The notes under the pieces: generated by a model
Told to the model about the DNA's origin: nothing
The model's input: only the letters and a program-made list of their open reading frames with translations
Databases searched by the model: none
Origin: Neophaeotheca triangularis
Lineage: Eukaryota
Assembly: GCA_054600435.1 (NCBI GenBank)
Contig: BAAIJX010000009.1
Span: forward strand, 372,001-436,000
Length of the DNA stretch: 64,000 nt
Direction of reading: 5' to 3'
Shown here: positions 10,374 through 64,000 of the stretch, in pieces
How positions within the stretch are numbered: the stretch's first letter is position 1
Layout of the letters: each line of letters starts with the position of its first letter
Made by a program: the position numbers and the translations under genes

Positions 10374-11412
10374 GCGTGCTGCGCTCGCGTTTCTTGCGCT
10401 GGGATGTTTTGGTCGAAGGAGCGTTTCGAGGCGATGGGTGCTTGCCTGAGGTTCTTATTATGAGGCTATGATGGTTATGATTGATGAGACGGCTGTATAA
10501 TCAGTAATGATAGCGTTCGTTTCCTTGTTCGAAAATCGAAGCCATTTTCCCATTGACCTGCTGCTGGCCTCTTCCCTCCTCTTGGGCCTTTTTCAACGTA
10601 AAAGCGGCGACGTTGGGAGTCGCTTTGCAAGTTAAGATTGGAAAATTGCCCTACTATCGTGCGTGACAGAACAGAGTCGATGGAAATAATCCGAGGGATG
10701 GTCTTAACATTCGTCGCCTTCAGTAATCTTGATGTGATACGAAGATTCATCACACCATACCGCCTTATGTTTAGGTAGTATTTATCAAAACCAAGCCCGT
10801 CATTGTTTTGACATGGATGGCCTCAATGGCGTTTTCACCACCACATGGAAGTGGCGGGCAACAGACGTACGCGAAGCCGCCGGCGACGAGAGATCCCCTC
10901 CCTGCCCCTCCACTCGGTTTGGAATCTGCCCCGCAGCGTCATCACTAACCGCGTGCATCCGATCTAGACACCCGATTTAGGTTACCCAGATGGCAGGGCG
11001 CTGTTTAAGGCGCAATAATAATAACATCGGCAAATGCTCCAAGCAATACTGATATTATAATCGTTGCAAAGAGGCGCAAATGCTCGCTCACAGGCATGAT
11101 TGGGTTCTGTCCATGACAAGGTCCCTGGCTGCAATAATGGATAGAGCTCCGAGGAGACCAGACCGTAGTCGATAAAATGCCACTTCTGTCAAGAGGCGTT
11201 GTACGTGCAGTGCGGTGGTAGCTGCAGGTGCGACATTGTAGGTTGTTGACGACTTGTAGACGTCACCCCGAAACTTTTCGAGGGGCGACAAGCTCCCGTT
11301 AAGAATAACTTACTTGGAACATTGCTGCCCTCTCCCTCTTTCATCACACCATACTCCCAACCTATACCAATCTCCCAATCAATACTCAAGACTCCAACGG
11401 AAATCAGCAAAA

Positions 11413-12613: not shown

Positions 12614-13309
12614 GCAGGTCGTGTCGGTCTGCCAGGAGTGAGTGGAGATTGTACAGTAGATCTGTAAATAATTACATCATGACCAGTTCCATGACACTTT
12701 ATGCCAGGTGTTTCCCAGTTCCTGAGTTCTTGATGTTCCTGATGTGACTTCGATCCCCGGCCATGTATTTCTGGTCTGGTAATATTCGTTGGGGTGATGG
12801 TAATTCGGAAGAGACGTACATAATCAATTTCCAGCTTTGCGTGCCCTGCGTAATGGTCGAATCTTGACGATGGCAACCAAACAAGACTACTATTGTCAGT
12901 TCATGTGAGGGGTAGGAGAAGGAAGACTCTAGCCATGGACCACCAAAGTTATACCATCTAATGCCTATCAAGGTGCTGGCTGTTACACCTCGATCTTCAA
13001 GCGTTCAAGCGCGTCACATGCGATCTTCGGTCGGCTTCCGTTCTTTCACATGTTTCTCCAGCTTACCCTCGGCTTTGAGCCTCAGTCGTCTTGTCTTGTG
13101 CATCATGTGCTTCAATTCGCTAACCCATACCAAGGACAAACGACAACTATTCACTGCAGCGAAACCCCTAGCCATCCAACTCATCACTCTCACTCGTTTT
13201 CGATTCCCAGGGGTTGCGGCTTCAATGTATCGTGGCATCCGCCATCTCCTCACACGCCCTCCCTTGCTAGAGCTGCTAGCAGCAACATAGACACCAACGC
13301 AACACGATA

Positions 13310-50400: not shown

Positions 50401-51064
50401 CCGGATTCTGCTCAGGGAACTGATGCGCCGGGTCCTGCGGAGGCATAACGGACGTGCGAATGTCTCGAGGATCGGGACGGAAAGCAGAACGCGTGTAGGA
50501 GCCTGGATTCTGCTCTGAAAACTGATGCGCCGGGTCCTGGGAAGGTAGAGCACCAGATATCTTCACGCGAGAAGGGCCATCATAGTCTCCAGGTGGCCCA
50601 ACAGGCGCCGCGGAGTACTGGCCAGGGAACTGTTCGAAAGACCCCATAGCCGGTATTCCACGCTCATCTTCGTCGACGCCGTCCGAAGCCCTACTGCTCT
50701 TGCGCTTGCTCTTGCTCTTCTCACTCCGCTCACGACTGCGACTGTGACTACGGCCGTTCTTCCTCCTCTTATCCTCCCTCTCGCTCTTCCCCCTCCCGCT
50801 CCTCCCCTCTTCCCCGTCCTCATCCTCCCACCCCTCTTCCCCGCGCTCCTGATCCAACATCTCAATCGCGCTCTCAGTCAGACCCCTCGCAGGCCTCCCA
50901 TCCCGATCACGCCGGCTCCTGTGCTTTCTCGACGAAGACCCGCTTGCCATACTCCGCGTATCGTCGTCACCCGCGGTACTGCTGCGACTGGAGCGCTTCT
51001 TACGGTCTTTACCGCCCGTGACGCTTCCGCTCTCGCTGCGCCCGGTGAAAGCCGCTTTCCACAT
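29450..51064 (-). CDS. lah: Giant Woronin-body tether, Leashin/Lah homologue ('involucrin repeat protein'), ~7,184 aa; one in-frame 60-nt intron at 31069-31010
   Basis: 21.6-kb open frame; the first ATG is at 51064 (the track start is TTG). Conserved-looking N-terminus (MEEYTEYIGVCKYCFDP), a huge acidic disordered middle with ~40 aromatic+polylysine motifs, and a C-terminal coiled coil plus globular domain (DEDYFDGACQKLC, YVFTRYLFGMDREQRQKLK, LFPLVVKKG). This matches the published architecture of Aspergillus Lah and Neurospora Leashin. Confidence 0.85.
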   Translation of the reverse strand: MWKAAFTGRSESGSVTGGKDRKKRSSRSSTAGDDDTRSMASGSSSRKHRSRRDRDGRPARGLTESAIEMLDQERGEEGWEDEDGEEGRSGRGKSEREDKRRKNGRSHSRSRERSEKSKSKRKSSRASDGVDEDERGIPAMGSFEQFPGQYSAAPVGPPGDYDGPSRVKISGALPSQDPAHQFSEQNPGSYTRSAFRPDPRDIRTSVMPPQDPAHQFPEQNPASYTRSDFGPDPRDDRGSSKREEKFGAAADYYKDQGQSVLSQPGVRSRTPNMLVNATPHLTTASVEANPAQDTGNGAAAEFYEGRAGPAGDDRDDRKSKKKSDKKCSDGDPKTKTSRGWMRPASKSSAKEEERSSQRAPTVPMTGEAASYYSPSTVSSMPPSTVPASSVAPPASLPSYAPPRPMRHNSEPAAASNGGYYAPPPEISGRHTSKYPSQEQHSNMPMYAAGAAAAGAAGLAAHQMNQGPSQYQGSQFPTTFGGSQYGGASQYQNSHYSTTAAGSQYGSASQYASRPPYANGNMPQLHQPDHHQHEHRGPISRLRDGLLNLVSSPDDVRKMEEYTEYIGVCKYCFDPNSSPSQGPRRHLYGQRRGSNDRLRRQTSGDSLRRHGSRRVDKNSRYAYGSSASSSDDERRSKKFSKTGLAGAGLAAAGAGLAANAMFNDRKDFDDTYSVKSGHRASSAARRSRSSSRERRSRGQYGSVRRSDGREYTGSTRRDGVMDSRKYQRSSSRERHGFGARFGGAALGAGALSAGTTSDRGQEQSQGAFVRPHRPSSSSSDSSGSIHNPGLADIFGFTDRKAKRRAERRASPSTRYSGARGNASSALSGNVPGGYYASSQGNFQQAPRRKERKSGFFNFGNGSASSSDSGLAFDSTVGSSKNASRTSLPTQKKAGRKSSDDRLNATVAGIGATAAALAAAQHKKNGRISKRPSRQAMRGQQGRRVSRQDSSDDEWEDELPSDVDDASSEGSGLAFGGDDRKLKGRQSMESLNSQSSGGGGGLSAWGWRWGGKKDKKKQRKIESAPAYPPRPGDNFIPGPSGYDGAPVQPTPQRIAPKANYAPTESVFSTNSAQPTQPLQHIDPRPLSEASGSQTGSRQAPMPGSFVEDPPIIARPGPSPIQHPQPITPIPSNLVQPSPSSRDPSRPMPRRTQSSPVYDSKWTEAALASGAGLATASALAGASAERERRSPGNVRFGLTDEQEGRDQKRRAEERRKEDRRRALEEEADRVAQEEEREKRRLEKAEREKREREEYAKAEREKGDHEVRRAREAEARAQLEREFQARQQREREDQERAEVERQQKEREEREREQSERDFDRQRSRQREGDDRRDSSSGTWKRTAGAAGAAVAAAAGGAAIAGAMRNRDDDHPSPPAREITPASERSGEPLKDDDIYDPDFFKRSRSPSELSRYAKASDQVVQDMESRYREPSQSQADFFYPKDVLSQPSEGKTRVADALGDNQDVQVWHVGDDVGAGDRAEREIFDNGGFAATSKGKGKKKGKKQLQQEERFTGVPLLNVIAPTPPMSTAGSTGGRSAPPSPLVEAEDSRSGAASRPSSSGRSVSWGADQMHEYEVRTPDSHAEREDYMAGPGGVPEQRPLDGEAKGARYDEQDMSRNARDEESYGARSGSFYQQPFAQTVSDLGFAVNSPGTEGAPPVRGYVEGETAEPTPAAEREMHIPGGFEEDPDTVATRTQAQQPEEYLSKLSKKERKKREKEIKQAEAEAALTDETPIMSQEGAASFEPEPEVESAWEPPLSKKDKKKREKAAKRGESFDASPLPEDSSSGAAGVAALGAVAGAAAAGLASQWHGDEEDRQQPPNVPAEEGQQTATDDYFPTTGGSKKDKKKKKKGVQQFDDFAESPASGAQTPVEEVTPDQTPREFPLEGQQENGEVEGAWEPPLSKKEKKKREKAAKQGGFDEAVLSEPQTPAEQAAPYDTQREFPLEGQQEHGQVEGAWEPPLSKKDRKKREKAAKQGGFDEAVLSEPQTPAENFPLPDTPRETPGEEQAGAGAEAAWGPPLSKKDKKKREKAAKQGFFDEPAASEPQTLAEDFPLPETPREERNEGPGGDSAWEPPLSKKEKKKREKAAKSAGFDDFGESSSVAAEREDPSFEPEQSQPPAQEDAWEPPLSKKEKKKREKEQQKAASMASEAQDEPSEPSPSIETPHGMPGEWNQSPPNEQSGDSTSPGQANGDSGSRESDPWAELAEPTKKSKKGKKKRDSERFNEPAASSPLRSEVAFDDYVGSQDQFNDHGITDSPRAMSPAGAQSAVSAPTGDSERRRSKSSRSRSRRDDDYPEEGGAYDDTRSVAASEPADYESGRKERRRRSKYEDDDTASVSSRSRREKDESPSSAKKEKKGGLFGLFSRNKSSESIAKADEPEEERKHRKKKHRSGSEYGDDDTRSTASGSRSRHRSSRDEGGEESRERRHHRRHQSGEAADDYDDTRSAATEPVSRRSKSGDDYYDTRSPSVASEGRARHHRRHRSGENGEDQSFLGMRVEEDDLPPLPPSAPATPSLVADEEMEKEQGVGNPGSATEFGEGEKVDRAIEGHVGESREIEAGDESTGAPREVDTTALPALPSSRPGSPTAITPETPLRPSLQPARPASSTAVPLRFRTFPHSPSTQTKSARSASFHGPADPTSGTPTSPSSVTKEQRTHRPRSTEFRHSQEIRPLYLVERNRKPTDQQQQQETPETLPSLPSSKPSSRTSSVQGSEDWQSAFEDQPSSPEMSTRGEPLSIDTSRANAIDLNEDVLGSQQATPKAVEAGDPITALAEQGKDQPKGPRQEPQYWTWDDLAKEQGMEPGVSWDGARIPPSSPTGSMDVEHHSRGKKADKAAEWESVGGAVPASPTESLGVEHHSRKRDVGGAAAAGALVGAAAAGLASRSTDEESESRDRDREDVSGIFGADDDAENDATRSAEPDASTRSTQEPERPTLSRASSSKKGGKKGKKGKEPALGTTTISAADPAAALTTEEQRQIEANDAEGAVDDWFAPAKPALDGYKKKKKGKQDSVGDAFIEPSTRDDAASGKEPGEPPNGPSVGGEAVQDDSQTQVSSVPSALFARTPNKKGKKKQKSKSGSKSEGSGASSLPSGEQDSQSPHDAGGEAGEGPGLEETPVMEDSTPPDSKDTERRKDALPSIDEPAETSLQSEPVAESQPMDGEALATETEDQSQQALAVVAEDEPADEWTAAFPSSKKAKKDKKKKKLDTFAEPESESSAIDESAKQIGENATAANVEEGAAEVGQEGKGEEVTAEANQESKDGEISAEARDMELSADEFHSPTQDGFSSSSLAKDNAGMPKDAPVEETAVVPEVSSKGATQAPTPDDEQVVVAAAVPEPILQPQSETSKDATQPAGGARSWFSSWWSGGKKTEKATAPPATPPPQTAEATIEPFDEASQNVESSDIPVEDKSIEHPQANRDLVEEPDTRAQETGNVHEHREVSNVQSEPVEDVLAPLTQDQRLEDPTSQQETAADNPHDTPIVPASEPPPVTSDVKEADRAVSDNMRQPAAGPEPVVSEPEPQTGDQYPLADAAQHETARADVTEPAGEELRPTESDEVARDLIEPTPASAEGIELNNEEPAQDPPPADDWAFSTSSKKSKKGKKGKKGLSTSFAENEQGPQGEVAEESKGQSLVENDAVGAVPRETVASGEEQVPYTLQEPSDPKPEITEQSGQAQQEPNAEPVAEEPDPDAFWAPTSTKKKGKKGKKSKDVASEPSTSEAQAAGEDAGREPELAAESAPNAESAAEEPDFDALWSSSSTKKKGKKGKKAKEGVEESSSFNSPFLGEDKAFEMENQLGEGLESKEEGTVPLGDTDLGSVKNPEASKPDDTDQPEEAGKPDEPGDFWGPLPSKKKGKKGKKGKQAAQDEDDTSKTAEAEICQSDEPVDAQPESHSQETAEDTVQPPTESQSTEQPAEQPAEPSESFWDMPVPKKKGKKGKKAKQAGLGEEDVTPPEEPHSPAAPEEPVDTDKPGQADEPPHPSEQPAEPSDDFWDQLSSKKKGKKGKKAKQAAFEDEGASRSEDQDVPTVDPQEPLDPSQPQQAEEPSQAPAEYLEQSAEPSEDFWDQPASKKKGKKGKKARQAAFEENERSQSQDEEASATIPEEPKDLVQAPPASVDVLIADSLQEAPENKPAETANGEDIPPEQPAQEEEQEDFWSASTSKKDKKAKKKAKRAAFGMEEVTPNVPENTISEQQQNVASNGSEPPTLSNEAKPAEPRADAGEPTAESGSMTTYQQERAPPAADNSALPSDAQEKGAGPDTIEVDLQAQDAAPLDTASEAQPTTSPKLQGIDHAASTKPSPPAVSETNTEEVGTNAAQQPPTEEAEAEDLGGTPAKGKKGKKAKKAKQAAALFAETSEEPEPSQAQAQAQATETGNELTLESPPDQKASEQAAPESQMPAEQDADDYWAAPVKGKKNKKGKKSKQADPDDEQPAQELSTTGPSPDEDNKIVEQPALQDERGGDAVADEYAPPAEAEADDIWSAPTKTKKGKKGKKNKNAFFEDSPTLDEASGTAEQQQPEDAPGSNHTASVENSFDERIEPINHNVEDQEASRGEPAHPTEAEADDIWSAPSKSKKGKKGKKNKAYSEDGPPAELHQSESQAVGVPDAEDARIEPAASEEAITEAKHFQSLDYEVATSSPEASAGDEAASSSQRPQDQALYNPAAQAEGGALPETSSQNEVQADEFWAAPAKSKKGKKSKKGKQTHFENEATSPEAQQQDTGHADEPFNRSESTPDAPGADMPVEPSLQEAEPKDEWEPPTTSKKSKKAKKRAQVMFDETADSSVPSQNQTTAEPPHTEPQENTAIESTSEITGRSAVEATESGELLENAAVSGGFEESRSDAPPVTEPLVTGTPTSEAHVQDQSPKTMQEDAAATGEDLSGAPIKSKRKKDKKAKKMDGFEEPPIANDESQSTLETSPGVGPKETGPTEPSPEAEAQPIEATTEDMWSMPTTTKKGKKAKKAKQLAAEQGMDQALEAADSAPSPPESDEVAAQNTQERDQITSESQTPVEGGEDDLWALSAKGKKKKGKKAKALNILSDMPPEVDAAEGPSVPEQERHADEAATPQVLSTTPAEATIDSAEKITSEVAAAGEDEVQRHAPEGGEGSPLQDNITAMEAPNDERNEDVPASEAPQQPIVGEQFGLEPSQNAAVVDTQSEEAFKAAETSDDIFTRASEQGLEPESANIESPRYFKDGNALLEPEQQPEDDSFAPISTKKSKKDKKKAKKQQSGQTEETPSLGQLDPQLIESPVPEDEPVENAEGTGAPKAEATVVPEPRQDPPAVDNNNAQLPPEQEPSEADIFPMTTKKSKKDKKKASKGLAWDESETPQGQASNPIEEAQPEPPPQARVDYSSQPAAVVNEETTTVEEVPQSTQPEPEEETETYFQIPAKKSKKDKKKAKQGSSARNENGEPSAQITEHTNQPEASSNDIDNRDRAEEKAEMPVAPEAPLRADQPKPDTSIGEVNERATVPSEAFDFQKDMPEAVQTEPDPESMFPVSTKKSKKDKKKDRKAQASENEPAAELEVGAEEEKPIAPVGTATPEEPAASVETEGVHGEPAEDDFWGASSSKKSKKAKKKAARGPALADEPTEEPENFTDEALAQTQPKEPMSRDLETANADQIAAEPEADEFWGTAPSKKSKKDKKKAKKGAALAWDVPAEDEAHKPTSLVTEEPQAISQEEAKEPLELVSEGQDTTLTPASGEAETALELESDKPTEATTEEDEQGAFDEAREEPSVASAPADNEPSSSQDIDFAATLAAGLSQSGFDPNVVVDDPAYHRRQSPPHATAEADPEETFPAATSKKVKKGKKAKRAQESNEQFPDAPEPSAETPEPRLENAQDDFDKVLAQSLQGGGFDADMLKKAGSAPSGDADFNEVTGDRDFSFAQQKRKKGKKGSQSPSQEDQSAPRDAFEPPAVLAETPEFGNNDLSDAAIDTEADNDRSVGASGAGDIQGNALEGEFREPSLASMSREAGEDEWAAPTKKKGKKGKKNKDPVEVPVTPLEDEAQDSSLMEPSEGTDSGPIGNDTAMTSGDATQDLAAPDVVDQEGGFDEWTAPSAKKKGKKNKKAEEQPFVETNNRRGFAENGGNDIPATREQEQSTGATSVPPTDGPTPSESQVKSQEMDVDEMDQAYRAYKKNKRNKKKQKALAAQSGDTTEAEPPSAMPESGGTKQSEASAIPGTSSEPQEKTTEAPAGGETNVYTPRSPEASREDPPSNVSSPNSASKVQSLFPGLQRVKRRTTSGNDTARPKPDIVHTSEVSQSLPTQVKHTPEQTYRQLETSETLLSQPSEKQGAWSFDNVPAADDTTSRALPAEDELNRDSGYQEGSVKHRSTESTAPRTPELRQAASQGSLRERRSQEPLHLGTGNNAQSRDMQASDHQRTPSGDAAMTPLEPTTKNRASYLFQSPHAGPREGDTNATPGDTHRSLETEQAQNQDNSRQLDQPTSSPSAGPLGSRGVLGAIPEGRPSSKSQRKRSKPTNDIGSPAHDLKASKHQETPEALRDQSFSPLHTPNADPHIGLPQVGRQGWAANAINRNAFNENGEYGSADQSLQNKPSRRTISDQRSPSAMSNRSNVSGGYFPRPQEELRSFSRASNRSLTPSLRRMDRSTSGDLRSAARLSEAGSGSAVGARSSPKTIPFEPPPTPPLQDDEEVVNRGAPRAAGGMADVYVSASHEFAVNAGAVTDTCLQQGYGDASGSQVSPTRPPSMRKRQSMHIMDLESRMEQLVQENRELHEAQHSGQRGFDSNNGDYQNLQRALDQRDHEMREKENEISRIKMMLDPMQAEIERLMEMNGGLTEANKNLVDDTNGRYGTLQAEHAQAREQWQNASRELEAIRQENGRLTSGMRDVVEQEITSALSDKNSEIRRLREELQIATERIRALQVQIQGSNQDDFLTARDEDYFDGACQKLCQHAQQWVLRFSKLSDNRICRLSSDLNDDTIEARLDNAILDGTDVDKLLGDRVRRRDVFMSVLMTMIWEYVFTRYLFGMDREQRQKLKALEKILAEVGPPRAVAQWRATTLTLLSKRPAFSTQCALDTEAVATEIFSVLCTFLPPPSSSERQLVDSLQKVVTVAVNLSIEMRTQRAEFIMLPPLQPEYDTNGDLVRKVHFNASLMNERSGHYSSNEQLEQERAIVKIVLFPLVVKKGDESGEGDEEIVVCPAQVLVHNDGGKGRKVVRVMSGAMDIDSPRRSRQSLVSTPMGEGGMNF

Positions 51065-51627
51065 CTTCAAATTGAGGTATAGAGATTGGCGTTGCTAGGG
51101 TAGTGTTGTGGGTGTTGACGCTTGTTTTGATAGATGGGTCACGCGAGGCGTTGGTTTGGGAAGAATTGCAATGCTAGCGATGGGCGAGTAGCTGAACGCG
51201 CCACCGAGAGATCAATATGTACACTCGGATAGTCTTTTCGTCGTCGTTTTGTCTCGTCTCGTACAGTGGTATAAAAGCCGCGTCCTATGTCTGATAGCTC
51301 AGGTCACTAGGAATAATAAACACGGCCTCGCAAATGGTGTATCGTATGTACAAGGATTGGGTGATCATGGACATGCAAAACATTTCTGCACACATGTACG
51401 ACAAGGAAGACAAACATTTCGCCCCTACAACAAGGTCGGTAAGAGGATGGTGAGGCGGGATCTTCACACCGCATACATGCCCGTACTAGCAGCAGCTGCT
51501 GTGTTGTTCATGCAGCTCGGTGGCTGGCTTTGCCGAGTGGCCGCCCGCAACGGTGGGCTGAACTGAAGAACCCCCGGCGGGTCCTTCCTAACGGCTACTG
51601 CCGCAGAGTCGGTCTGCTTCTGCTGTT

Positions 51628-51657
51628 GACCGTTGACCATGGCGTTCTTCGTCTCAA
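51628..51657 (+). repeat. Left TIR GACCGTTGACCATGGCGTTCTTCGTCTCAA
   Basis: The reverse complement of 62124-62153 is GACCGTTGACCATGCCGTCTTTCGTCTCAA: 3 mismatches, first 14 bp perfect. Confidence 0.92.
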
Positions 51658-51933
51658 AACAATGAACGTGGGGTTTTCAGCTTTGCATACTTCCGCTTTC
51701 ATTAACAACACTAGAACAACACACGATTTGTATGCGAACAGCGTACAACTAATGAGAAATGGAGTCACTGTCGCTGCATGCGGTACTCACGTTCGCTATG
51801 CGCTGCTTGCGGCCTAAGGCATTTTGTTGTTCGCTAACATACCTCTAGCCGCGCGTAATCCTCACAACTAAACCTCTAACAACAACCACATTGCGCGTTA
51901 TCTCGTGGTAGCGCGGTTTACCTACTACGCATT

Positions 51934-52860
51934 ATGGACTCTGCTATAAGTAAGCCTAAGGACACCTTATCTATCAATAAACCTCCGGTTAGCGAACCTA
52001 GAGCTAACGAAACTAGCATAGATTTAGCCGAAGAGTGAGTTCCTACGTACCCTTTCGGGTCAATCGTTCATGTTCGCACCTAATTCGTTATAGTGAGCCC
52101 GTTATCTTACCGAGCGACCCTCCTCGACCCTAGCTCCCCGACAACCTTAAGTAGCTTAAGCAACCTACTACGACCGACATTAACGACTTTTGGCTTAAGA
52201 GCGACAAGGACTAGGATAAATTAGTAGTGAAAGCTACTAAAGAGTAGAAAGAGAAGATGAAGAACAAGCTAGTAACGGCGTATCTAAAGAAGTTAGACGC
52301 CGCGCGCCGTATAATAGAGACGGGGGAGGGTGTCGTCGCTATCGTACCTTATAAGACATACGTACGCGTAGCTATAAACGGTCCGGCGAAAAAGGCCCTA
52401 ACGTGTACGGTTTTTAAGGACACTAGTAAGGCCTATGCATACTATCGGCGTATAGGAAAGTCTAGCTATAATGCCCGTAAGACGGCGAAGCCCCTTACGA
52501 ACGGCGAGCGATTAGACAAGATAGAGGTATAGATTAAGGAGCTAGGTGAAGAGCTCCGTCTTCGGTTAGATAAGCTAGAGGAGTCTATTAGAGAGCGTCT
52601 AGAGGAGCAGAAAGACGACATTGCTACTAATACTACCGACGTTAACCGAGTAATAACCGATATCTCTACTATCGAGAAGGGCCTCGACGAGAAAGCCGAC
52701 TAGTCTAACCTCGCTAGTCTAGCTAACACGCTTAGTAGCTTTAGGGGTAAGGTAGAGGCTACGTTTAGAAGGATTAAGTAGTAGTTAGAGAAGTTTAGGG
52801 TAAAGGTTACGGACAAGGACGGGGAGCTTAGAGAGATTTATTAGGCGTAAAGGAGCGATT
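51934..52860 (+). pseudogene. RIP-degraded gene with a putative Cys-cluster and C-terminal coiled coil; intron 52035-52093; 3' end approximate
   Basis: ATG 51934 and a GTGAGT..CTAAT..TAG intron restore frame with track ORF 52257-52532. A heptad-like E/L/K-rich tail follows. Confidence 0.6.
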
Positions 52861-53280
52861 ACACTTGCGAATACCTAGCGAACAGTCTTTTGAAATCAAT
52901 TTAGAGTCTCTCGAATACTATAGTCTAGCCGAATTTCATTAGTTTTACCCATAATTCAAGCATTATACCCTTCAAATAAAATCTTTAACCCTTACTCTCG
53001 ATATAACCTAGGTAACACAAGGAGCATTAGCATTACATAATTCCCTAATACCGACACTGTAACTACTAAAATAACTCCCGTGTCGGCGACTATTGCAGAT
53101 TTTAATATGATTTCTACGCAAACTCTAACCCTCGACCTTAATATAGACTAGCTCCCGCTATATCTAGGCTTCTAATTAGCTCGCTAAGCCGCCGAAGTCT
53201 AACCGACCGACCTCTTCCCTTGCATCTATAATAACAACACGGTACTCTAGCTATAACACCTCTCGTCCTATTACTAAACA

Positions 53281-53425
53281 ACCTATCCCGGCATTAATGA
53301 ACCTATCCCGGCATTAAATAACCTATCCCGGCATTAATTAACCCATCCCGGCATCAAACAAACCATCCCGGCATTAAACAAACTATCCCGGCATCAATCA
53401 ACTCATCCCGGCATTAATCAACCTA
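53281..53425. repeat. 20-bp tandem repeat x7 (ACCTATCCCGGCATTAAWYA-like)
   Basis: Directly visible periodicity. Confidence 0.95.
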
Positions 53426-53616
53426 CTACGGTAACCGCTATCCTACCACGGTACCTATTAACCTATCCTAGCCTAAAGAAACCGTTAAAGCACTTAGGCT
53501 AGCCTAAGAGACAGTCGGGCTATAGCATATTAAGAGTTAGGCTAGCCGGAGAGCATCGGGCTACGTGCTAAATAGTTTTAGGCTAGATAAATTAGCAGTC
53601 AGACTAAAAAGTTCCG

Positions 53617-53689
53617 GGCTAGGTCAGGATAGGCTAGGTTAGGATAGGCTAGGTCAGGATAGGCTAGGTCAGGATAGGCTAGGTTAGGA
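53617..53689. repeat. 15-bp tandem repeat x~5 (GGCTAGGTYAGGATA)
   Basis: Directly visible. Confidence 0.95.
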
Positions 53690-53747
53690 AGGACATATTC
53701 CGCCCTGTTATATCCTTTAGAAAACCAGGGTTTTTGCTCTAGCTAGC

Positions 53748-53869
53748 GTATTAGTAGTCGGGCTAGGAGCATTAGTAGTCGGGCTAGGAGCATTAGCAGT
53801 CGGGCTAGGAGTATTAGTAGTCGGGCTAGGAGCATTAGTAGTCGGGCTAGGAGCATCGGCAATCGGGCT
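53748..53869. repeat. 21-bp tandem repeat x~6 (GCATTAGTAGTCGGGCTAGGA)
   Basis: Directly visible. Confidence 0.95.
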
Positions 53870-53961
53870 CTATAGGGGAAGGGCATTAGTAGAAAAACTA
53901 GAGGCTCGATAGAAGCTCGATAGTCCTCGAGACGCCTTCGCGACTAGCTACCTAAGCTAAT

Positions 53962-54140
53962 ATTTAACAACATAGCTGCCTTAGAGGCAATTCCCATGCT
54001 ATAGCCCGCCTCGGAGGCAATTCCTACGCTATAGTCTCTCGTCTCGTACGCTTTACCTCCCGAGAGACTATGGCGTAGGAATTTCCTCTAAGGCGGGCTA
54101 TAGCATGGGAATTTCCTCTAAGGCAGCTATGTTGTTAAAT
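53962..54140. repeat. Long inverted repeat with 80-bp arms (53962-54041 / 54061-54140) and a 19-nt spacer
   Basis: Arms differ at ~5 of 80 positions. Each arm contains an internal 30-bp direct repeat. Confidence 0.93.
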
Positions 54141-54258
54141 CTTAGCTAGGGCAAGAGGCTATAGCAAATAGGGTATATACCCGCGCTTATTAACGAACTT
54201 AGCCTTTAAACTAAAGAGCTTTACGGAGGTCGATCCGGCGTACGACGAGCGAGATCAC

Positions 54259-54356
54259 AAGGAGCGAGACAAGCTTAAAGAGACCTACATCTCCGCCTCT
54301 ATTCATAAGGAGCGAGACAAGCTTAAAGAGACCTAATCTCCGCCTCTATTCATAAG
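54259..54356. repeat. ~49-bp direct tandem duplication
   Basis: aaggagcgagacaagcttaaagagaccta(c)atctccgcctctattcat occurs twice, with a 1-nt deletion in the second copy. Confidence 0.9.
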
Positions 54357-54826
54357 CCTTATAGGCATATGCCTTCCTATTATATGCTCGAACGCTACCG
54401 TGGCAAGGGGCAGTTATAAAAACCTACGTCCCTTCATTATAATACCTCTTCTTTATAATAACCTTCCGCCTTCTACTTCTCCGACCACCTTCTACTTCTC
54501 CGACTACCTTCTACTTCTCCGACTACCTTCTACTTCTTCGAGACTAGTACCCGCTACTACTAGCTCATTATGGCTAGTAATAAAGGCTCTAGTAATAGCA
54601 CTAATAATAAGAGCTCCGGTTAAACCCCTAGCGGCAATAGAGGCATTACCGACGAGAACCGCGCCGACATAAGGGACTTCGTTACTACTACTTAGCGTTA
54701 CGTGGATTAGTACGATCCTAACGACCCTACGTCTAATGACGCTCAATTTACTGCTGCCGCTTAGCGGTTTATCGACCGCGGCGACCTAACGGATCTATTA
54801 GCCTCGCAGAATTAGAGCACAACCTT

Positions 54827-54984
54827 ATCTACGCCCGTAAACATATCTACGTCCGTAAACACCTCTACGCCGGCAAACACCTCTACGCCGGCAAACACCT
54901 CTACGTCCGCGAACACCTCTACGTCCGCGAACACCTCTACGTCCGCGAATACCTCTACGTCCGCGAACACCTCTACGTCCGCGG
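54827..54984. repeat. 18-bp tandem repeat x~9 (ACACCTCTACGTCCGCGA; encodes NTSTSA-like units)
   Basis: Directly visible. Confidence 0.93.
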
Positions 54985-55116
54985 ACTCCTCTCCGCCTAC
55001 GGGCCCCCTAACTAGTAAGCGTTAAGAGCGTCGCTACCCGGTAACGTCTACATTAACATCAATACTAACTCTAATACTAACACTAATACTATCTAGTGGA
55101 TTAGGCACTAGCGGAG

Positions 55117-55278
55117 GGCACTAGGCACTAGGCACTAGGCACTAGGCACTAGGCACTAGGCATTAGGCATTAGGGCAATAGGGCAATAGGGCAATGGGGC
55201 AATAGGGCAATAGGGCATTAGGCATTAGGGCAATAGGGTAATGGGGCAATAGGGCAATGGGGCAATAGGGCAATGGGG
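55117..55278. repeat. Compound microsatellite, (GGCACTA)n grading into (GGGCAATR)n
   Basis: Directly visible. Confidence 0.93.
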
Positions 55279-55589
55279 CGGTTATTTCATCTTGGTTTTT
55301 TAGCTACAAAATGAGCTCGTAAGAGCATAGTTATAACGAAGGCTTTAGGCCAGTTTCACCTCCTTGTGAAGTTATTAGGTTACTAAAATTCAGGTTAGGC
55401 CGGGTTATGTTAGGTTAGGTTATGCTAGGTTAGGATAAGTCGGGCTAGGGCGAGAGCAGTTAGGCTATTCGAGTCCGGGAGTTAGGCTAGCTAGATCCTT
55501 AGACAAGTTAGGTGAAAAACGTTAGTCAGGCTAGGCTTAATGCAGTTAGGCTAGCGAAAGTGAAGTTAAAGGATCCTAAACCCTCCTTT

Positions 55590-55662
55590 ATTCACGACAG
55601 CTTACCTACATTCACGACACCTTACCTATATTCACGACACCTTACCCGCATTCACGACACCT
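55590..55662. repeat. 20-bp tandem repeat x~4 (ATTCACGACACCTTACCTAY)
   Basis: Directly visible. Confidence 0.9.
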
Positions 55663-56510
55663 TCGACTTGTCTACTACTACTAAAGGCTCCCTTGATCTT
55701 TATAGTAACCTCCTACTAACATCCTAACCTTTTACCCTCTACCTTTAACTACGCTATAGCGAACGATATAGGACTCGATAAGGACGGCTAACGTATCTCG
55801 AGGTCGCCATTAAGTACATCATCCTAGTCGTTAACACTAGCGCCTCCTACGCTATTAGTAGCGCCTAGGGCAAGAGCTAAGATAAGATCTTAAGCCTAAG
55901 CTTAGGCGTTAGCTAGTAGGCGGCTCCCTACTACCTCGCCTAAACGCTCTCTGTCGCCTTTAGCATTTCGACTAGTTCCTATTTCTTAACCACGTCGGGT
56001 TACTTATGGCTTAGGGCGCGCGCCTCTATCTCCCTACCCTTATTATGGCGCGGCGCGGCATTATACCTCTCTCGCTCTACTACCGGGAACAGTTCGTCCT
56101 CGCGCGGTAATAGGACTAGGCTTAATAACGCCTACTTCGAGACCTCTAACTATAAGGCCTAACCCGGCTATAGAGCCTCCGCGGCGTAGACATCCTTTAA
56201 CTATAACTAGCAGCGCCCTACGCTTAACGCTCTATGCGAGACAAAGAGACCCGCGCGACGTGCCTTCTTCGCCTACCCCCGACGGTAACGACGGCTTCGG
56301 ACACCTCTTTACGCCTTCCCGTTAACTTGCGTAAGAATTAGGTGCTACTACTATTAGAGATTCCCCTACGCCTTAGTTACCGCTTGCTAGCTATAGTCGA
56401 CAAAGCTCCTATAGCCCCCGACTTTAGTACGGCCCTCTTAGTTATTAGAACTAATACCTAGAGTCCCGTTATAGCTCGTAACATGGCTCGCAACATGGCT
56501 CCTAACATGG
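55650..56510 (-). pseudogene. RIP-degraded hypothetical gene remnant; boundaries approximate
   Basis: A minus frame reads as charged protein (e.g. LPREDELFPVVERERYNAAPRHNKGREIEARA) with RIP-type stops. Confidence 0.35.
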
Positions 56511-56609
56511 CTCCTAATAACCCGCCCGGTAACCCTCCTAGACTCTATAACCTTCTATCGAGCATAATGATTATGTGCCTATAGATATTGACGACGATAG
56601 GCCATCTGT

Positions 56610-57680
56610 TAATCGTTCTTTGTCGGGTGAGGGTTTAACGTTCTAATCTCGAGAGCCGTCTCGTTAGTCGTCTCGATAGCCGTCTCGAGAGCCGTCTCGT
56701 TAGTCGTCTCGAGAGCCGTCTCGTTAGCCGTCTCGTTAGCCGTCTCGTCAACCGTCCGGGTCTTTACAGCGTGCTCTCTTCTTACGGCCCTCTGCATCTA
56801 TACTTGGCCTTTATTAGAGCTCGCTGCCTAGCTAGCGTTAGCTACTATTAGCTCTAGAATGTTAAGCCTAGGCTACATTCGAAGAGCGAGAGTATCTAGC
56901 TCGGGCCTAGGCCGAAGCAAGTATAGCTAGCTATACTTAAGGCTAGATTTAAGAGAACGATCTATACGAACAATAGCGACAGCCTAGGTACCCGAGCTAG
57001 ACTTTAGTCTAGAGTAGAGAGACTCGTGCCTAGCGAGAGAAGCTCCCCTCTAGATCTCGAGAAGGCTAATCTCTCTATACTACTAAGCTCCGTAAGCCGA
57101 ACGACAAGAGCTAGCTCGTATAGGACGTAGGGTCTAAGACTTAGAAGAGGAAGTAGAGCTATCGCGGGAGAATGACGGATACCGACGCTAGCCTTAAGTA
57201 TTACGGAGATTAACGCTACGACCGTTATCGGTCGATAGGAGCCCGTTGCTTTACCTATAAAGAGATAGAGCGCGCTTTCTACTACTAGAACCGGGGCACT
57301 AGTTACGGTTATAGTGAATGTCTAAATAGGAATACCGTATGCTCCTTTTAAAAACGAGCTAATAAGCGAAAGGAGCTTATAGAGTAGGAACGTTAACAAT
57401 AGGCGCGACAGACTAGCACCGCCGCTAGCGCTAGCTCTAATTATTAACGATAATCTTAGTAATAGTAGTTTAGCCCTCCTCCTTCTTAGTAATAGTAGTA
57501 GCAGGCTACTACTAGTACTCGACGTTCGAACTAGCGTAGTTTTGCCGATATAACGCCTACGGAGCGGCAAGTAGAGCTTAAGGAGTACGAATAGCGTGAT
57601 GCTCGAACGGTAAGAATAAGAGAGTTAGTTAGGAATAGGACCGAGCCACACTAGTTTACGCCCTACATTATTATATGGGT
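56610..57680 (-). pseudogene. RIP-degraded low-complexity S/R/P-rich gene remnant ending in ETAN/ETAL repeats; boundaries approximate
   Basis: ORF-track fragments 57322-57570 and 56609-56797 appear to be parts of one degraded coding region. Confidence 0.4.
56648..56748. repeat. 12-bp tandem repeat x~8 (GCCGTCTCGTTA/GAGA)
   Basis: Directly visible; encodes ETAN/ETAL on the minus strand. Confidence 0.9.
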
Positions 57681-58199
57681 AGAGCGTTTTAGTTAGACGG
57701 AGTCGCGTATATAGGTAGAGTATACTATAGGTAATATTTAGGAGTTCGCGGATAGGGGGTAGGGTCGTAGGGTCCGCGGTAGTTAAGCGTAGGGGGGAAG
57801 AGCATAAGGGGAGAAAGCATAGCGGCGGTTAAGGAGCAAGGCGTAGGTTTATAGATAGCACATCTACGTTCTAGACGAAATCATCCTACCTCGACCCGTT
57901 ATACTACCTCTTAACCCTATAAGACCTAGCTTAACTACTTCTATAGCTAGCCTAACCGCTCCCTTACCCTTAGCCTAACTACTCTTTAGCTAGCCTGATT
58001 ACAATTTACTTATAGCCTAACTGCCTCTCGGGCTAGCCAAACTGCTTTACACGCTTAGCCTAGCTACGTGTAGGCTAGGAGGGGTAAGAATAGGCTGTAC
58101 TAGGTTAGGGCGTAGTAGGTCGGGCTTAATAGGGAATGTGTAGTCTAAGATAGTACAGTTTCTAAAGCAAACAATAGGAAATTACACCGCGTACGCCTA

Positions 58200-59922
58200 A
58201 GAAACAGACGTAACTAGACAAAGTATGTCCCTATAAAAGAAAGCCCCGACGGGACGCGCCCCTTACTACTAGCCTGCCTATCCTTTACCGACCGCGACGT
58301 CGGTTACGGAGCTCCCTCGTACCGCCCTAGTTAACGCTCCCCCTCTTACGCTTGCTACTAGCGCTAGACTTTTACTTAGATAATAGCGGGGGCTCGGACG
58401 AGGTAGGTGGCTCGGAGAGGCCTAACGACCCCTCGGCCTATAAGATAAGGTCTAACGACTCTCCGGCCTAGGAGAGAAGGCCTAACGATTAGCCGACGCT
58501 ACTCGGCGAGGGTTCGCTACCCGTTACCGGTAGTAATACCTCGCGAGAGTGCTAAGCTGTATTAGTAACGGCTTCGGCGTTACTAGCGGTAGGGCTAGAA
58601 GCTCTAAGGCTAAAATTAGGTCCTAAAATAGGAAGCTCCTCGGGACTATCGCATCCCCCGAGTAGTAGATCGGGAGATGCTCGCCGCGCTACTCGCCGCG
58701 CGCGGGGTATTAGTTAACCGGTAAGATTAACAAACTCGGGGGTCTTGTCTAGATCGATTTGCATAGTCGACTATGACCGCTAAAACTCCGTTTTCACGAC
58801 AGTATTGTTGCTGTCCGCCTCGACGCTCGGCTAAACCGGAGTAACTAGCTGCTTCTACTGCCTCTTCCCCCCCCTTAGAGTCCTTAGTACTCTTAGTGCT
58901 TTTAGTGTCTTAGGGGTACGGGGTTTCGGCAGACTCGGCGGTAACTCCTCCTCTACCTCCTCCGGTTCTAGCTCCGGCTCCGGCTCTACCTCCGTCTAGA
59001 TTACGATCTTAGCGGTAAACTCCCTACGGTTCCTCCTATGCTAGAGGAAGGGTATAAGGATTTGCTCGAGGTCCTTAGAGTAGGTAACGCTCCGACCGTA
59101 AATACTAGGCATATGAGTTTTGCTGTCGAAATCGGTAATTAATAGGGTGTTAACGTGATCAGGTTTTAGCGAGGCAAACTAGTAGTCTATGTTGTCGGTC
59201 TGTTTTAATAGGAACTCTAAGAAGTATATGTTTTCGTAGTAAAAGGCCTTCTCTTTAAAACCGTAGGTGATTCTATTCGCCTTTCTAGGCGCGCCATAAA
59301 CCTACTACTAATTAGTCCTATTAGATCCTTTTAATACCGTCTATATGAAAATCTTAATATTGGCGGAGTACGTACGCTCTAGAGGGGGTTCGGACGAAGA
59401 CTATACTAGATCAGTAGAGCTTCTTAGCGACCTAGAGGAACGGTAACTAAAGCCTACGGCGCCGGCGTTACTCTTCTTATAACCCTAGAGACTATACGTA
59501 CGTAGGCTAGTAGCTAATCGGTTAGTGTTAGCCGTTCCGCTAATGGCGCCCCTAGGACCTTCGATAAAGGTCTAGTAGCCCGATCCTTAAGAGGCCGTCC
59601 TTTAGTCGCTCTACGTTCGCGGGGGCTATACCGGGCTAACTAGCTCTACGGTAGGTTAGCGCATCTTAGCGATAGGCGCCGGAGCGACTTATTACCTCTA
59701 GGGCTCGGCGTTAACGGCGTGCTCTCCGCTAGTTCTCGTATCTATTCGGTCCGGAGGTGCTACGGAATAACGGATCATTAGTCGCTTATAAAGAGGGATT
59801 AGATTCGAGAGCCTATAGAACCTACACTTACTATAGGCCTTAGTAAGTTCATAGCGAATTTGCCTACGTACGCAATAGGACCCGATTTGCTAAAATTCGG
59901 TAGGTCCCTCTTGTTCCGACAT
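58200..59922 (-). pseudogene. RIP-degraded second ORF of the element (unknown function, EPEPE-rich segment); 3' end approximate
   Basis: ATG at 59922 (MSEQEGPTEF*QIGSYC...). The long frame is interrupted mostly by TAG/TAA and is co-oriented with the transposase. EVEPEPE(L)EPEEVEEELPP occurs near 58950-59000. Confidence 0.55.
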
Positions 59923-60169
59923 AGTCCTGAAATTTGCCTCGAACGAGCGGCGATTAGGCGACGAATAAGGCGTTATGTTAGGGGAGAATATAGGTAAACG
60001 GGGGGTAAAGGAAGAGTAAGACAAGATACGATACGAAAGATGAATAAGAAATTTAGAGCGAAATGAAATACCCTGTGGCTAACTACGGGGTTACGAACGG
60101 CACTACGAACTAGGTTCGATTAGACTTTTAGAGCTTGCCTTAATATAGTCAATTTCCGCGGGGTTTCTA

Positions 60170-61998
60170 CTCATTATTAATAGGTATACCCTGCGCTATA
60201 CGCGTCCTCGTAGTTAATCGGTTAGCTAACTATACTAGCGTCTACAAATACTTGCTACGCAGCCCCTATTGCCGGCTAATTTCGAGCGCCTAGTAGGCGC
60301 TCGAGCTCTATAAGTATTAGCTTATAGCCGGCTAAATCATAAAGGCGGACCTAGTCACGAAGCGCTCGATATACTAGGGTGTGCACTTTCTGTCCGCTAG
60401 GATTAACGTCGTCACTTGTAAAACGCTTAAAACCGAGGTCCTAGAGCGTCTATTAACACTAATTAAACGTAGGTTAGGGAAGGTAAGCATTAATGTCTGC
60501 TTACGTTATTAGTTCAGCCCTCTTAGCCGTTCGTAGCATGTTCGCGAGGCTACTTACGAAAATCCGTAAGGCTCTTAGCGAGGGGAGTAAGTAACCCCTC
60601 CGGAACCGCGATCCTATAATCTCTTCTACCGTAGATTATAGGGTAGTCATATAGCATGTTTAGTACCCCTACTACTGCGTTTAGTCGATCGGGCTGCCTT
60701 CTAATTCTATGGTTGTTCTAAAGGTCTATATACTAGAAATATACGGCACGGATAATAGGTATATATACCGCTAAGAATACAATGCGGTGCCGCATATTAC
60801 CTAGTTAATACTGTCTAGTAGCGACGAGGATCTCGAAGTAGCTCTTCTATTACTGTCCGATACTTAAGAAGGACTTCCCCTACTAGACCTCGATACGCTG
60901 ATTTTGCTTGCTAGTACTATACCGGAAATAGTCCTTAAAAGTCAGCTCCTCTTAGTTACCTAGCCCGTTAGCTTAGTCGCCGCCTATTCGCAGTTACGTT
61001 GCTAAATAGAACTAGGCATCTGCTAGCATAATTGTTTTACCGCCGCGGTCTATAGTAATAACTTGGGGCATAACACCCCCTTTACCGACGCTTACGAGGT
61101 ATTATGCGCCGACGGACACCGCTATCTAAGCCGTAATGCTAACGTAAAGCCAGATTACCTTTCGAGAAAAGGCGTCGATATAACTATAGATCTATATACC
61201 GTAGCCCTCGAATTTGCACATAGCGTCGATCGACTATACGTAATTAGGCCCCGGTATGTTAACTGTACGGGTATGACGGACCGTCTAAAGACGCCTCTTA
61301 AAACTAGCAGGATTAATTTCATGCGTAACCCTCTAGAGGCGGTTTCTAGTAGCAACGTGTTAGCGATTTGTCTATAAACGCGGAGCGAACAGCGCCCTTT
61401 TCGCTATAACTAGACAAAACGAATAGGAGAAGACGCTTGTCCTATTAGACGTAGTAAAGGGAGTAGCGAATAACTAGGGGAACAGGGTGCGAATAGCCTA
61501 CCTTCCTACTACGTTATACTTCGACCTAAGGGTAACGTAGAGCGTTTGTATGCTAAGGTCTTTAATCTTGCCGCCTTCGAGCTCTACTATGTACTTGTCT
61601 CTTATCTACTACTCTATAGCCTAGCCTAGCTCTAAGTCGTCTACGTACTGTTTACGTAGGCCTATAGACAGTCTTAGATTGATTATTTGCCGTTCGCTCA
61701 AGTCGCTATAGCCGTCCGCCTAGAGCACTATAGCGATTTCGGCGTCTATTAGCCTTATGTCGCAGACTAGCATGTGTACACGGTACCGTATTACCTCCGT
61801 CTCGATATCAAGGAGTCTTAGCCGGCGACGACTAGTAGTCTGCTATTCGCCGAGACGCCTACGTAGTATACCTTCCGAAACGAGAAGGCTATAGGTGGTT
61901 AGTAAATCGGCGCGCAGCTCTAAGTGTTGTTTTCCGCTGGCAATGGCTTGTTCGATGTGGGCGCGAAACGGCTCTAGGTCTACCCGTTAGCGAGGCAT
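60170..61998 (-). pseudogene. RIP-inactivated DDE transposase (Clr5-like N-terminus + integrase core); intron 60557-60497; 3' end approximate
   Basis: Segments in one frame from ATG 61998: MPR*RVDLEPFRAHI..LRRRLGE*, PGPNYV*SIDAMCKFEGYGI*IY..IDAFSRKVIWLYV, DRGG, Y.TSKQNQRIEV**, L*NNHRIRRQ and MLYDYP. Stops are TAG/TAA at expected Trp/Gln positions. Confidence 0.88.
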
Positions 61999-62123
61999 GA
62001 ATGGGAAGTATGTATGTGCTTTGCATAACAAAATCAGTAATATCGTAGCATGGTTGCGAACAAGGTGCGAACGAGATTGCAATGTTTACAAAACAAAAGT
62101 GCGGAAGCGCGGGGGACTTTGAA

Positions 62124-62153
62124 TTGAGACGAAAGACGGCATGGTCAACGGTC
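62124..62153 (-). repeat. Right TIR
   Basis: ttgagacgaaagacggcatggtcaacggtc, followed by the TSD ctgtt. Confidence 0.92.
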
Positions 62154-62500
62154 CTGTTTCAGCTGATATGCAGGGGTACCTGGGTACTCGGTATGGTCAA
62201 GTCACGTGCGAATTGTCTGTCGTAGACTGCAAGAGAAGGAAGAAACACTCAATGAGCCGGCTGCAAATTAACATTTCCTATACTGATCCGGACCAGTGTG
62301 AATTTTAAATCGCCTTTGGGACCTTCGCCCGTCTATCCCGACCGAAATGATAAGTAATCGCTAGCCCATAATGCTCGCCCAATGTGACATTCCCTACGCC
62401 GCACGCCATCGCTTTCCCTCAAGAACACATTCCGGTTCCTATTTCTGGAGCTCTCAAATCGCTATTGCCCATAGACAACAGTCTGCGGTTTCCAAGCTTA

Positions 62501-63710
62501 CTAAACTGGGTTTCCAAACTGCGCCCTCAGGCCAATAATCTGGTCCCTCGCGCCAGCGTCCATGGCGTAGACTTGCTCCCTCGTGAGCGCCATGATGGCA
62601 CGTAAAGCTTCTTCCTGGTTTGGCTGGCCTTGTGGGGCCTGTTGCGGCTGCGGCGGGGGTTGGTACGCTTGTTGCTGTACCGGGGGGGTCGGGGCGTAGC
62701 CCATTTGTGGAGGCCCCTGTTGAGGAGGGTAACCATATTGGCCTTGCGGAGGGAACTGTGGAGGTGGTTGCTGCATTGCTTGCGGCGGCGGTGGCTGTTG
62801 GTACATCTGCTGTGCTGGAGGCTGGGATGGCGTAGGGGCGGGAGCCGTCTGTTGCACAAGGGAGTTGATAACGCTTGTGTCGACGACGCCGAGGAGCAGC
62901 AGCGCCTGGAAGACGGCGTAGCTGAGTTGAGGTGCAGATGTGAGGAGGGCCGTTGCGCGCTGCGGCTCGGTTTGGACGAGGTTCTTCATCTGGCTGATGA
63001 TGTCGAGAAGTTGGGGTGGAGGGATGGAGGAAAGCGTGCGACTGATTGCGTCGGGGGCTGTGAGGTTGGGATCGAGGTCGACTCCAGATGGGAGTGGTGG
63101 AAGTGCTGATGAGTCTCCTGGTACCGCGTTCGTGCCATTCGCATCCGCTTGGGGTCCGTTCAGATTGAAATGTGCTGGTGGTGGTGCCCTGCCACTGCCT
63201 CCATCTTGTTGCCCTCCAGCTCCGCCTCTACCACCGCCGTTGTCGTTGCTGTAGTCAACGCGCAGTGTCCTTCCCATAACCTCGTGTTCGTTCAGGTTGC
63301 GAACAGCGCTCGCGGCCTCGTCAACGTTGGTATACTCCAAAAATCCGAAACCCTTAGGCTTCCCACTCTCCTTATCGTAGACAAGGCGGAAGTTCACCAC
63401 CGAGCCAACGCGCCCGAAGATCTCGCATATTTGCTCCTCGCTGACTCCTGCGCGCACCTCAAGTTAGCAAGATTCTCCACCCTATGCAAATGTCAATCGC
63501 AACTGCCCCCATTTATCCCCTGAATGGATGCTTATTTCGATTTCTCATCCAGTTTCTCGGGCTTTGTGATGTGTTGACTGTCTCTCCCGTCCATGCTTCT
63601 CCTCGTCTGAGGCAGTAGGAACGGTAACAATGAGGTTTTTACACGTTATACGTACCGTATGGGATGTTGCCAATGAAAACCACCCTTCCACCCTTCTCGC
63701 GCGCAGCCAT
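62501..63710 (-). CDS. RNA15: Cleavage/polyadenylation factor Rna15/CstF-64; intron 63655-63448
   Basis: MAAREKGGRVVFIGNIPY|GVSEEQ; RRM FRLVYDKESGKPKGFGFLEY..AVRNLN..GRTLRVD; hinge PQLSYAVFQALL; Q/P-rich linker and C-terminal LT.EQ..M....R.QI..LR. Confidence 0.93.
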
Positions 63711-64000
63711 AGTTGCCTCACTATTTCACGGGCCTTACTGATCCGGTGTGTTCATTCGCAGTCTGGTGTCGAAGATTGAAGGAGGTAGGACGCCAGAAAC
63801 GTATCGGTCGTGGGTATTTTGGCAGAATGTCGATGGCAGAGTCAAGACTTGTTAGTGTGTTCGTAGTCGCGATTTCGCTTGCGAAAGTAAGATTTGGTCA
63901 GAGGTTGATGTTGTTGTGTTTGGTGTTGAAGGTCAAGTCGTGCACGCCGTACTCGTGAGAGTTGAAGCTTCAACGCATTGTTGCCAAGACTGCGTTCGAC

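Follow-up and report, generated by a model that had tools for sequence, protein, structure and literature searches.

Transposons of the IS3EU superfamily have TA..TA ends and usually a 6-bp target-site duplication (TSD) (PMC10045372). In a 64-kb stretch of Neophaeotheca triangularis DNA (the window, to whose positions all element coordinates refer), we find a 10,526-bp element that is very probably a dead cut-and-paste DNA transposon copy of this superfamily, forming one unit and killed by repeat-induced point mutation (RIP). The likeness to IS3EU lies in an integrase-like DDE transposase without an HHCC finger, terminal inverted repeats (TIRs) longer than 30 bp, a frequent complement of several genes and occurrence in fungi. 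The difference lies in the ends, GACCG..CGGTC, and in a 5-bp TSD, both found likewise in the related metagenomic elements L065 and L072, with a G end also in L003. The element is a variant sublineage of a known superfamily, unusual only in its G..C ends and its 5-bp TSD. An initial annotation, made from the letters alone, correctly recognised what kind of element this is and what drives it, and gave the TA termini and 6-bp TSD of IS3EU as PMC10045372 has them; it was too strong on novelty and cargo.

Large IS3EU elements with several genes have been published before, and IS3EU is routinely called in ascomycete repeat annotation (PMC11645255). Fungal TET-carrying IS3EU elements end in TAYGG..CCRTA, and the 15 consensus rows compared, out of about 27 in Table S1, are 8,337 to 12,933 letters long, all starting with TAYGGA (PMC12730594). 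These rust-fungus TET/JBP families resemble the window element in their large size, and their genes face each other from the two ends. They differ in their TAYGGA starts and in carrying genes for TET/JBP and alpha-kinase, which were not detected in the window element. Styx/REP9 is a 7.9-kb, four-gene IS3EU-like element (PMC8232023), described as restricted to Zymoseptoria, driven by an IS3EU-like integrase, flanked by 6-bp TSDs and equipped with two DUF3716 genes (PMC8232023, PMC10853768). It sets a precedent for more than two genes in such elements and, by its description, is likewise a multi-kilobase ascomycete TIR element with an IS3EU-like integrase, polymorphic between isolates and with many copies degraded by RIP. 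Its TIRs measure 36-43 bp against 35 nt in the window element. Styx differs in its 6-bp TSDs and DUF3716 genes, as the window element has a 5-bp TSD and showed no DUF3716 by six-frame Pfam scans or by tblastn with the DUF3716 open reading frames (ORFs) of L004 and L018, a 59-residue domain that RIP could hide. With Styx/REP9 and the 15 long consensus rows in print (PMC8232023, PMC12730594), the suggestion of a poorly described lineage of large multi-gene elements is not supported, and the element does not stand for a new class.

Integrase-type DDE cores with short TSDs are also known elsewhere. According to PMC10045372, the IS2 subgroup of bacterial IS3 makes 5-bp TSDs and Ginger2 makes TSDs of 4-5 bp, which likens both to the window element; by description they stand apart, with different end sequences and a place in prokaryotes or in remote eukaryotic lineages. 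IS481EU elements, reported there only in parabasalids, are defined by TSDs of about 4, 15 or 25 bp and a transposase closest to prokaryotic IS481 (PMC10045372), and by description the 5 bp of the window element lie near the shortest of these.

The borders of the element are as follows.

51628..62153, unstranded: whole element, 10,526 bp between the TSD copies, RIP-mutated along its full length
51623..51627, unstranded: left TSD copy CTGTT, exact; a single CTGTT at the empty site in run X2
51628..51662, plus strand: left TIR, first letters GACCGTTGACCATG; aligns with the TIRs of relatives, and a diverged X2 copy begins exactly at 51628
62119..62153, minus strand: right TIR, pairing with the left TIR; a diverged second copy of the right end is present in run X1
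62154..62158, unstranded: right TSD copy CTGTT, exact

The TIR arms are 35 nt long and 86% complementary, with the terminal 14 nt (GACCGTTGACCATG) exact at the left and right ends; the 27 of 30 identical positions counted initially are correct for the first 30 nt. When the 28-nt left end was searched in the window with up to three mismatches, the partner was the sole match, where 0.00 were expected (100 shuffles). The first base of the element is G and the last is C, which gives the ends GACCG..CGGTC. A TSD scan with shifted boundaries and lengths of 3-10 bp gave the unshifted 5 bp as its longest match, and a 6-bp duplication does not fit the flanks; the duplication of CTGTT outside both ends was thus seen correctly at first sight.

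Sequencing runs were compared with the window, and their contigs were placed on positions 48000-64000. Run X1 contains the complete stretch and may be where it comes from, while X2, another sample of the same organism, contains 0.44 of the sampled words. Contigs of X2 span both flanks, where a few tens of single-letter differences are listed, but hardly any of the element. A 781-nt X2 contig (record 14) stops matching at 51627 and continues with TCAGCTGATA, which equals window positions 62159-62168, and two X2 contigs starting at 62154 have GTCGGTCTGCTTCTG before them, equal to positions 51608-51622. These contig ends overlap by 30 letters, as expected of neighbouring unitigs built from 31-letter words, and therefore describe one molecule consisting of the left flank, a single CTGTT and the right flank. 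It follows that the TSD is 5 bp and that the terminal G and C are the element's own. The element is a polymorphic insertion, absent at the same site in isolate X2, and it entered after the lineage of this isolate had split from X2. The empty site that the initial annotation proposed to look for in other strains was thus found, and with it the proposed single TIR transposon with a true 5-bp TSD is borne out. Both genomes contain further diverged copies. In X2, the match of record 15 to 51628-51767 begins at the 31st letter of the record and shows 16 differences; in X1, record 8 (1,018 nt) aligns to 62057-62151 and shows 14.

The driver of the element is read on the minus strand near its right end.

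60241..61998, minus strand: transposase pseudogene, ATG at 61998, with an rva_4 DDE core and an N-terminus that is Clr5-like by alignment

This remnant takes up about 1.76 kb of the 10,526 bp, in line with the initial estimate of less than 2 kb. It forms one frame over 600 codons with 42 in-frame stops, 38 of the 42 being TAA or TAG. A stretch of about 50 residues in this reading is absent from all relatives and looks like an intron that has been read through. The protein matches the Pfam integrase core rva_4 (E value 6.5e-10; 39.5 bits against a cut-off of 26), and D258, D317 and E370 are invariant in seven aligned sequences, comprising fungal and animal rva_4 proteins. Aligned by tblastn to the metagenomic relative L001, it is covered from residue 1 to 586. 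A word-based protein search with the RIP-damaged transposase gave six matches, and an exhaustive search gave 813 cluster representatives at E values of 1e-3 or below, of which 273 reached 1e-10 and 30 reached 1e-30. The best of these matches is 39% identical, and no intact close copy was found among the 813 representatives, none of which exceeds that identity. The Atlas clusters around the homologue P0006 (rva_4) are all eukaryotic (Basidiomycota, Ascomycota and Chordata) and are labelled mostly as hypothetical or as 'integrase core domain-containing'.

Clr5+integrase-core proteins had been proposed as drivers of the element. The integrase half of this proposal stands, since the pseudogene encodes a DDE transposase of the IS3EU kind with an rva_4 match and its catalytic residues kept. 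The Clr5 half stands for the relatives. In one ascomycete Atlas cluster, 64% of members have Clr5, and a scan of the N-terminal 100 residues of the 27 of 36 relatives with an N-terminal exon (near-duplicates and stop-bearing rows excluded) listed Clr5 at E values of 0.1 or below in 25 of 27, with the Pfam cut-off reached in 22 of 27. The same N-terminal scan found no Clr5 domain in this copy, L001 or L003, although the N-terminus of this copy can be aligned with those of the relatives (MPR..[VI]DLE).

The element is clearly delimited by its mutational pattern. TpA/ApT is 2.09 in the element against 0.61-0.76 in the flanks, and (CpA+TpG)/(ApC+GpT) is 0.44 against 1.18-1.34, so that the first index is raised and the second lowered relative to unique DNA, as in a RIP-affected repeat. 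In 300-nt steps, the signature is missing from the flanks and sets in no more than about 300 bp from either end of the element, giving sharp borders; the indices are most extreme at 55.6-58.6 kb. The plus strand of the element contains 460 TAG, 314 TAA and 38 TGA triplets. RIP acts on duplicated DNA and needs a second copy in the same nucleus. Since the whole unit was hit within its own borders, it must have been present in at least two copies in a sexual cycle after or around its insertion.

To place the element among its kin, relatives were collected from metagenomes: 466 of 602 pattern-matched stretches encode relatives, and the analysis continued with the best 80 loci. In 23 of the 80, one element end or both can be recognised; the first base is T in 18 loci, of which L057 is a duplicate of L055, and G in the other five (L003, L006, L030, L065 and L072). 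Both ends could be compared in 13 elements, the window element and 12 loci, with these TSDs.

Exact 6-bp TSD with TACGG..CCGTA-type ends: L047 (CGTAAT), L055 and its duplicate L057 (TGTGCC), L066 (TCCCTG)
Exact 5-bp TSD with GAC..GTC ends: window element (CTGTT), L065 (CAAAG), L072 (AACAT)
Flank match of 3 bp only: L006
No TSD: L004, L018, L030, L044, L051, L052

The six elements without a TSD may reflect chimeric repeat assembly. The anatomy of the relatives (TACGG..CCGTA ends, 6-bp TSDs, Tet_JBP and DUF3716 genes) identifies the rva_4 transposase family as the IS3EU family. Among the characters of IS3EU, the window element has the integrase-type DDD/E transposase (rva_4, in one tree with elements of canonical anatomy) and TIRs of about 30 bp or more (35 nt).

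Several relatives are worth recording in their own right. L066:6654-13205 is an intact-looking element of 6,552 bp with ORFs for Tet_JBP, an rva_4 transposase and an opposite-strand protein of 350 amino acids, a layout that matches the TET-carrying IS3EU families in print. At L004:4163-4633 and L018:3953-4456, elements of IS3EU type contain DUF3716 ORFs, the domain being shared with REP9-1 and REP9-2 of Styx; DUF3716 may be a recurrent companion of the rva_4 transposase in ascomycetes. Other companion ORFs are unnamed and encode 350-446 amino acids. L005:4415 and L006:106/6104 have near-identical transposases, with T as first TIR base in L005 and G at both ends of L006, whose 42-nt TIR is perfect. 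In L047 (4581-5772 / 10007-11183) and L060, inverted ends of about 1.2 kb, 85% alike, are made of internal sub-repeats. No TIR is recognisable upstream of the L001 transposase, where only repeated units were seen.

A quick IQ-TREE search was run on 83 rows, namely 76 of the 80 loci (loci whose core match spanned fewer than 140 residues were excluded), six database proteins and the window transposase with stops as X. The window joins L001 and L002 with a Shimodaira-Hasegawa-like approximate likelihood ratio (SH-aLRT) support of 96. Together with L003, L065 and L072, these form a six-row clade (SH-aLRT 98), whose sister (support 94) is an eight-row clade with L006, L005, P0002 and P0005. Ends are visible in four of the six rows and begin with GAC in all four; both ends are visible in three, and each of the three has an exact 5-bp TSD. 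The ends of the window element and of L003 are alike (GACCGTTGACCATGG and GACGGCTGACCATAG). The G-ended TIRs can be aligned with those of their T-ended kin, with A2, C3 and G5 invariant. The signature predicted from these sequences for the sublineage is GACSG..CSGTC with a 5-bp TSD, against TAYGG..CCRTA with 6 bp in IS3EU.

We regard it as evenly balanced whether this sublineage amounts to an unnamed ascomycete branch of IS3EU type in which G-ended repeats are recognised, the stagger is 5 bp, units reach at least 10 kb with more than 8 kb of non-transposase DNA, and activity in this species is recent. No IS3EU lineage with a 5-bp TSD or G ends is mentioned in any title or abstract that literature searches on IS3EU and GingerRoot returned (Repbase and Dfam lay outside the search), and no paper combined Clr5, integrase, transposon and fungal. 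As far as the searched literature shows, what remains novel is an IS3EU-type branch with G..C ends, a 5-bp TSD and recent mobility in this species. DNA transposon classification uses TSD length and end sequence as diagnostic characters, and a clade within the IS3EU transposase family that has changed both offers a natural pair of close relatives. With such a pair one can ask where in an integrase-type transposase the target stagger and the end base are determined.

A number of points weigh against the placement in IS3EU. Two defining traits of IS3EU are not seen, as the termini are GACCG..CGGTC rather than TA..TA, though homologous in the alignment to TACGG ends, and the TSD is exactly 5 bp rather than 6. 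The assignment runs through the anatomy of relatives, in a tree that holds no Repbase IS3EU, GingerRoot or IS481EU reference proteins. That tree comes from a quick search, and the window branch is long (0.94), a length attributable to RIP. The first base is not strictly bound to the clade: the transposases of L006 (G) and L005 (T) are near-identical, and L030 (GGC) belongs to a different clade. With six of 13 elements lacking a TSD and L006 matching over 3 bp, the 5-versus-6 rule rests on three plus three cases. The empty site was read from contig ends of 10 and 15 letters and not from a listed joint, and the lack of a Pfam Clr5 match in this copy, L001 and L003 belongs here as well.

Under the IS3EU reading, and going by what the transposase family suggests, the transposase would have bound the TIRs of about 35 bp through its Clr5-like helix-turn-helix N-terminus, excised the element and joined its ends to a target cut with a 5-bp stagger, whose repair would have left the CTGTT duplication. 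Insertion came first, and RIP then mutated the whole 10.5 kb, at a time when the element was multi-copy. The copy shows that, until RIP silenced it, the family moved in this species and was present in several copies.

Beyond the transposase, about 8.6 kb of the element are RIP-degraded DNA with the following features.

52017..52970, plus strand: putative ORF-like remnant pointing inward, K/E-rich and coiled-coil-like, picked by eye
53235..56770, unstranded: minisatellite-rich zone of about 3.5 kb, with periods of 7-63 nt
53955..54147, unstranded: palindrome or foldback of 193 nt, with 87-nt arms 93% alike and a 19-nt spacer

The many minisatellites described at first sight are confirmed by 20 Tandem Repeats Finder rows, nearly all at 53.2-56.8 kb, and all direct repeats in the element are minisatellites, mostly within 53,235-56,770. 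The palindrome described with them is the 87-nt-armed foldback at 53955-54147, each arm of which contains two 30-nt sub-repeats. It may be a nested miniature inverted-repeat transposable element; no TSD is visible beside it. A dimer of two elements of about 5.3 kb, which the length would allow (10,526 is about 2 x 5,263), was rejected because the element has only one transposase and lacks an internal TIR pair.

How the element came to its size has two doubtful explanations that we rate alike. The first, favoured initially, is that it is a cargo-carrying transposon in which about five passenger genes travelled with the transposase and were made unreadable by RIP. The unit did move or duplicate as one piece, with one TSD, one empty site and RIP ending at its borders; its complete clade-mates L065 and L072 are half as long; relatives carry companion genes (Tet_JBP, DUF3716 and the unnamed ORFs of 350-446 amino acids); and one inward ORF-like remnant lies at 52017-52970. 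However, this remnant matches Pfam only below threshold (DUF4795, 16.5-17.1 bits against a cut-off of 34.8), and no homologue was scored among 1307 candidates. Pfam scans in six frames and under two read-through codes (X, or Q/Q/W, at stops) returned only sub-threshold low-complexity matches for the interior, so that no domain was found outside the transposase. Six-frame tblastn of the element against the 80 loci matched the transposase region only, with 103 matches in the frames of the true strand, the plus-strand matches being antisense to the transposase stretch. None of 13 companion ORFs from relatives matches the element, the best hit (E value 0.006, 23 residues) lying within the transposase region. 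About 3.5 kb of the interior are the minisatellite zone. Stop-density profiling for coding frames was dropped: it fails to mark even the known transposase frame, which makes gene remnants picked by eye unreliable. By homology, the transposase is the only gene demonstrable in the element. In place of the five remnants first described, one by-eye candidate besides the transposase is left, and no cargo gene could be demonstrated by Pfam, tblastn against the 80 loci, companion ORFs or homologue search.

The second explanation, equally tentative, is that a core transposon of about 5 kb was enlarged later by nested repeat insertions or by growth of tandem arrays. The complete clade-mates, both RIP-affected by appearance, measure 5.2-5.3 kb (L065, 5,248 bp; L072, 5,327 bp) and other relatives 2.6-6.6 kb, the interior holds many arrays and the 193-nt foldback, and the most extreme RIP indices fall at 55.6-58.6 kb. 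Against this, the element contains neither long direct repeats like long terminal repeats nor an internal TIR pair with a TSD; a lone RIP-degenerate TIR-like site at 57439 lacks a partner. At 85% likeness, no further X1 or X2 contigs were seen over long pieces of the interior. The entry of the element after the isolates split also leaves little time for nesting.

A separate, unnamed superfamily, perhaps nearer to IS481EU, Ginger2 or the IS2 group of bacterial IS3, is improbable. Its case is that a 5-bp TSD and G..C ends violate the published IS3EU definition and that TSDs of 5 bp in the IS2 subgroup, 4-5 bp in Ginger2 and about 4 bp in some IS481EU come closer (PMC10045372). Yet the transposases of canonical elements, which end in TACGG..CCGTA and have 6-bp TSDs, belong to the same Pfam family and tree, the TIRs of the window element can be aligned with those of such elements, T and G first bases occur in the near-identical L005 and L006, and the Atlas rva_4 clusters are all eukaryotic.

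A Starship carries as its hallmark a tyrosine-recombinase 'captain' gene at one end. For such an element, or for a chance inverted repeat around AT-rich RIP-affected DNA, size alone speaks, and the likelihood is negligible: as far as the data go, both are refuted by the single CTGTT at the empty site, by a TIR match expected 0.00 times and by the lack of a tyrosine-recombinase domain in Pfam scans of six frames under two read-through codes, in agreement with the initial annotation, which had seen none.

For the host, the dead IS3EU-type copy is a recent insertion beside the promoter side of a giant gene.

29450-51094, minus strand: giant ORF of 7214 codons in a single open frame, with KKGKKGKK-type repeats throughout; the putative lah of the initial annotation
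62501-63463, minus strand: RNA15/CstF64-type gene with RRM_1 and CSTF2_hinge domains

The element lies about 0.55 kb upstream (5' side) of the giant ORF, whose first and last 1,200 residues contain no Pfam domain, and its right end is about 0.35 kb from the stop (3' side) of the RNA15/CstF64 gene. Within the giant ORF, X2 differs from the window by a 9-nt insertion behind 50018 and a cluster of differences at 50553-50586, and it has two alternative 123-nt contigs at 50759-50881. In two more runs, X3 with a share of 0.05 and X4 with a share of 0.00, matches to the stretch were confined to short repeat-like pieces. For X4, which carries the same organism label and shares next to none of the stretch, these pieces lie in the giant gene, so that the label may cover more than one lineage.

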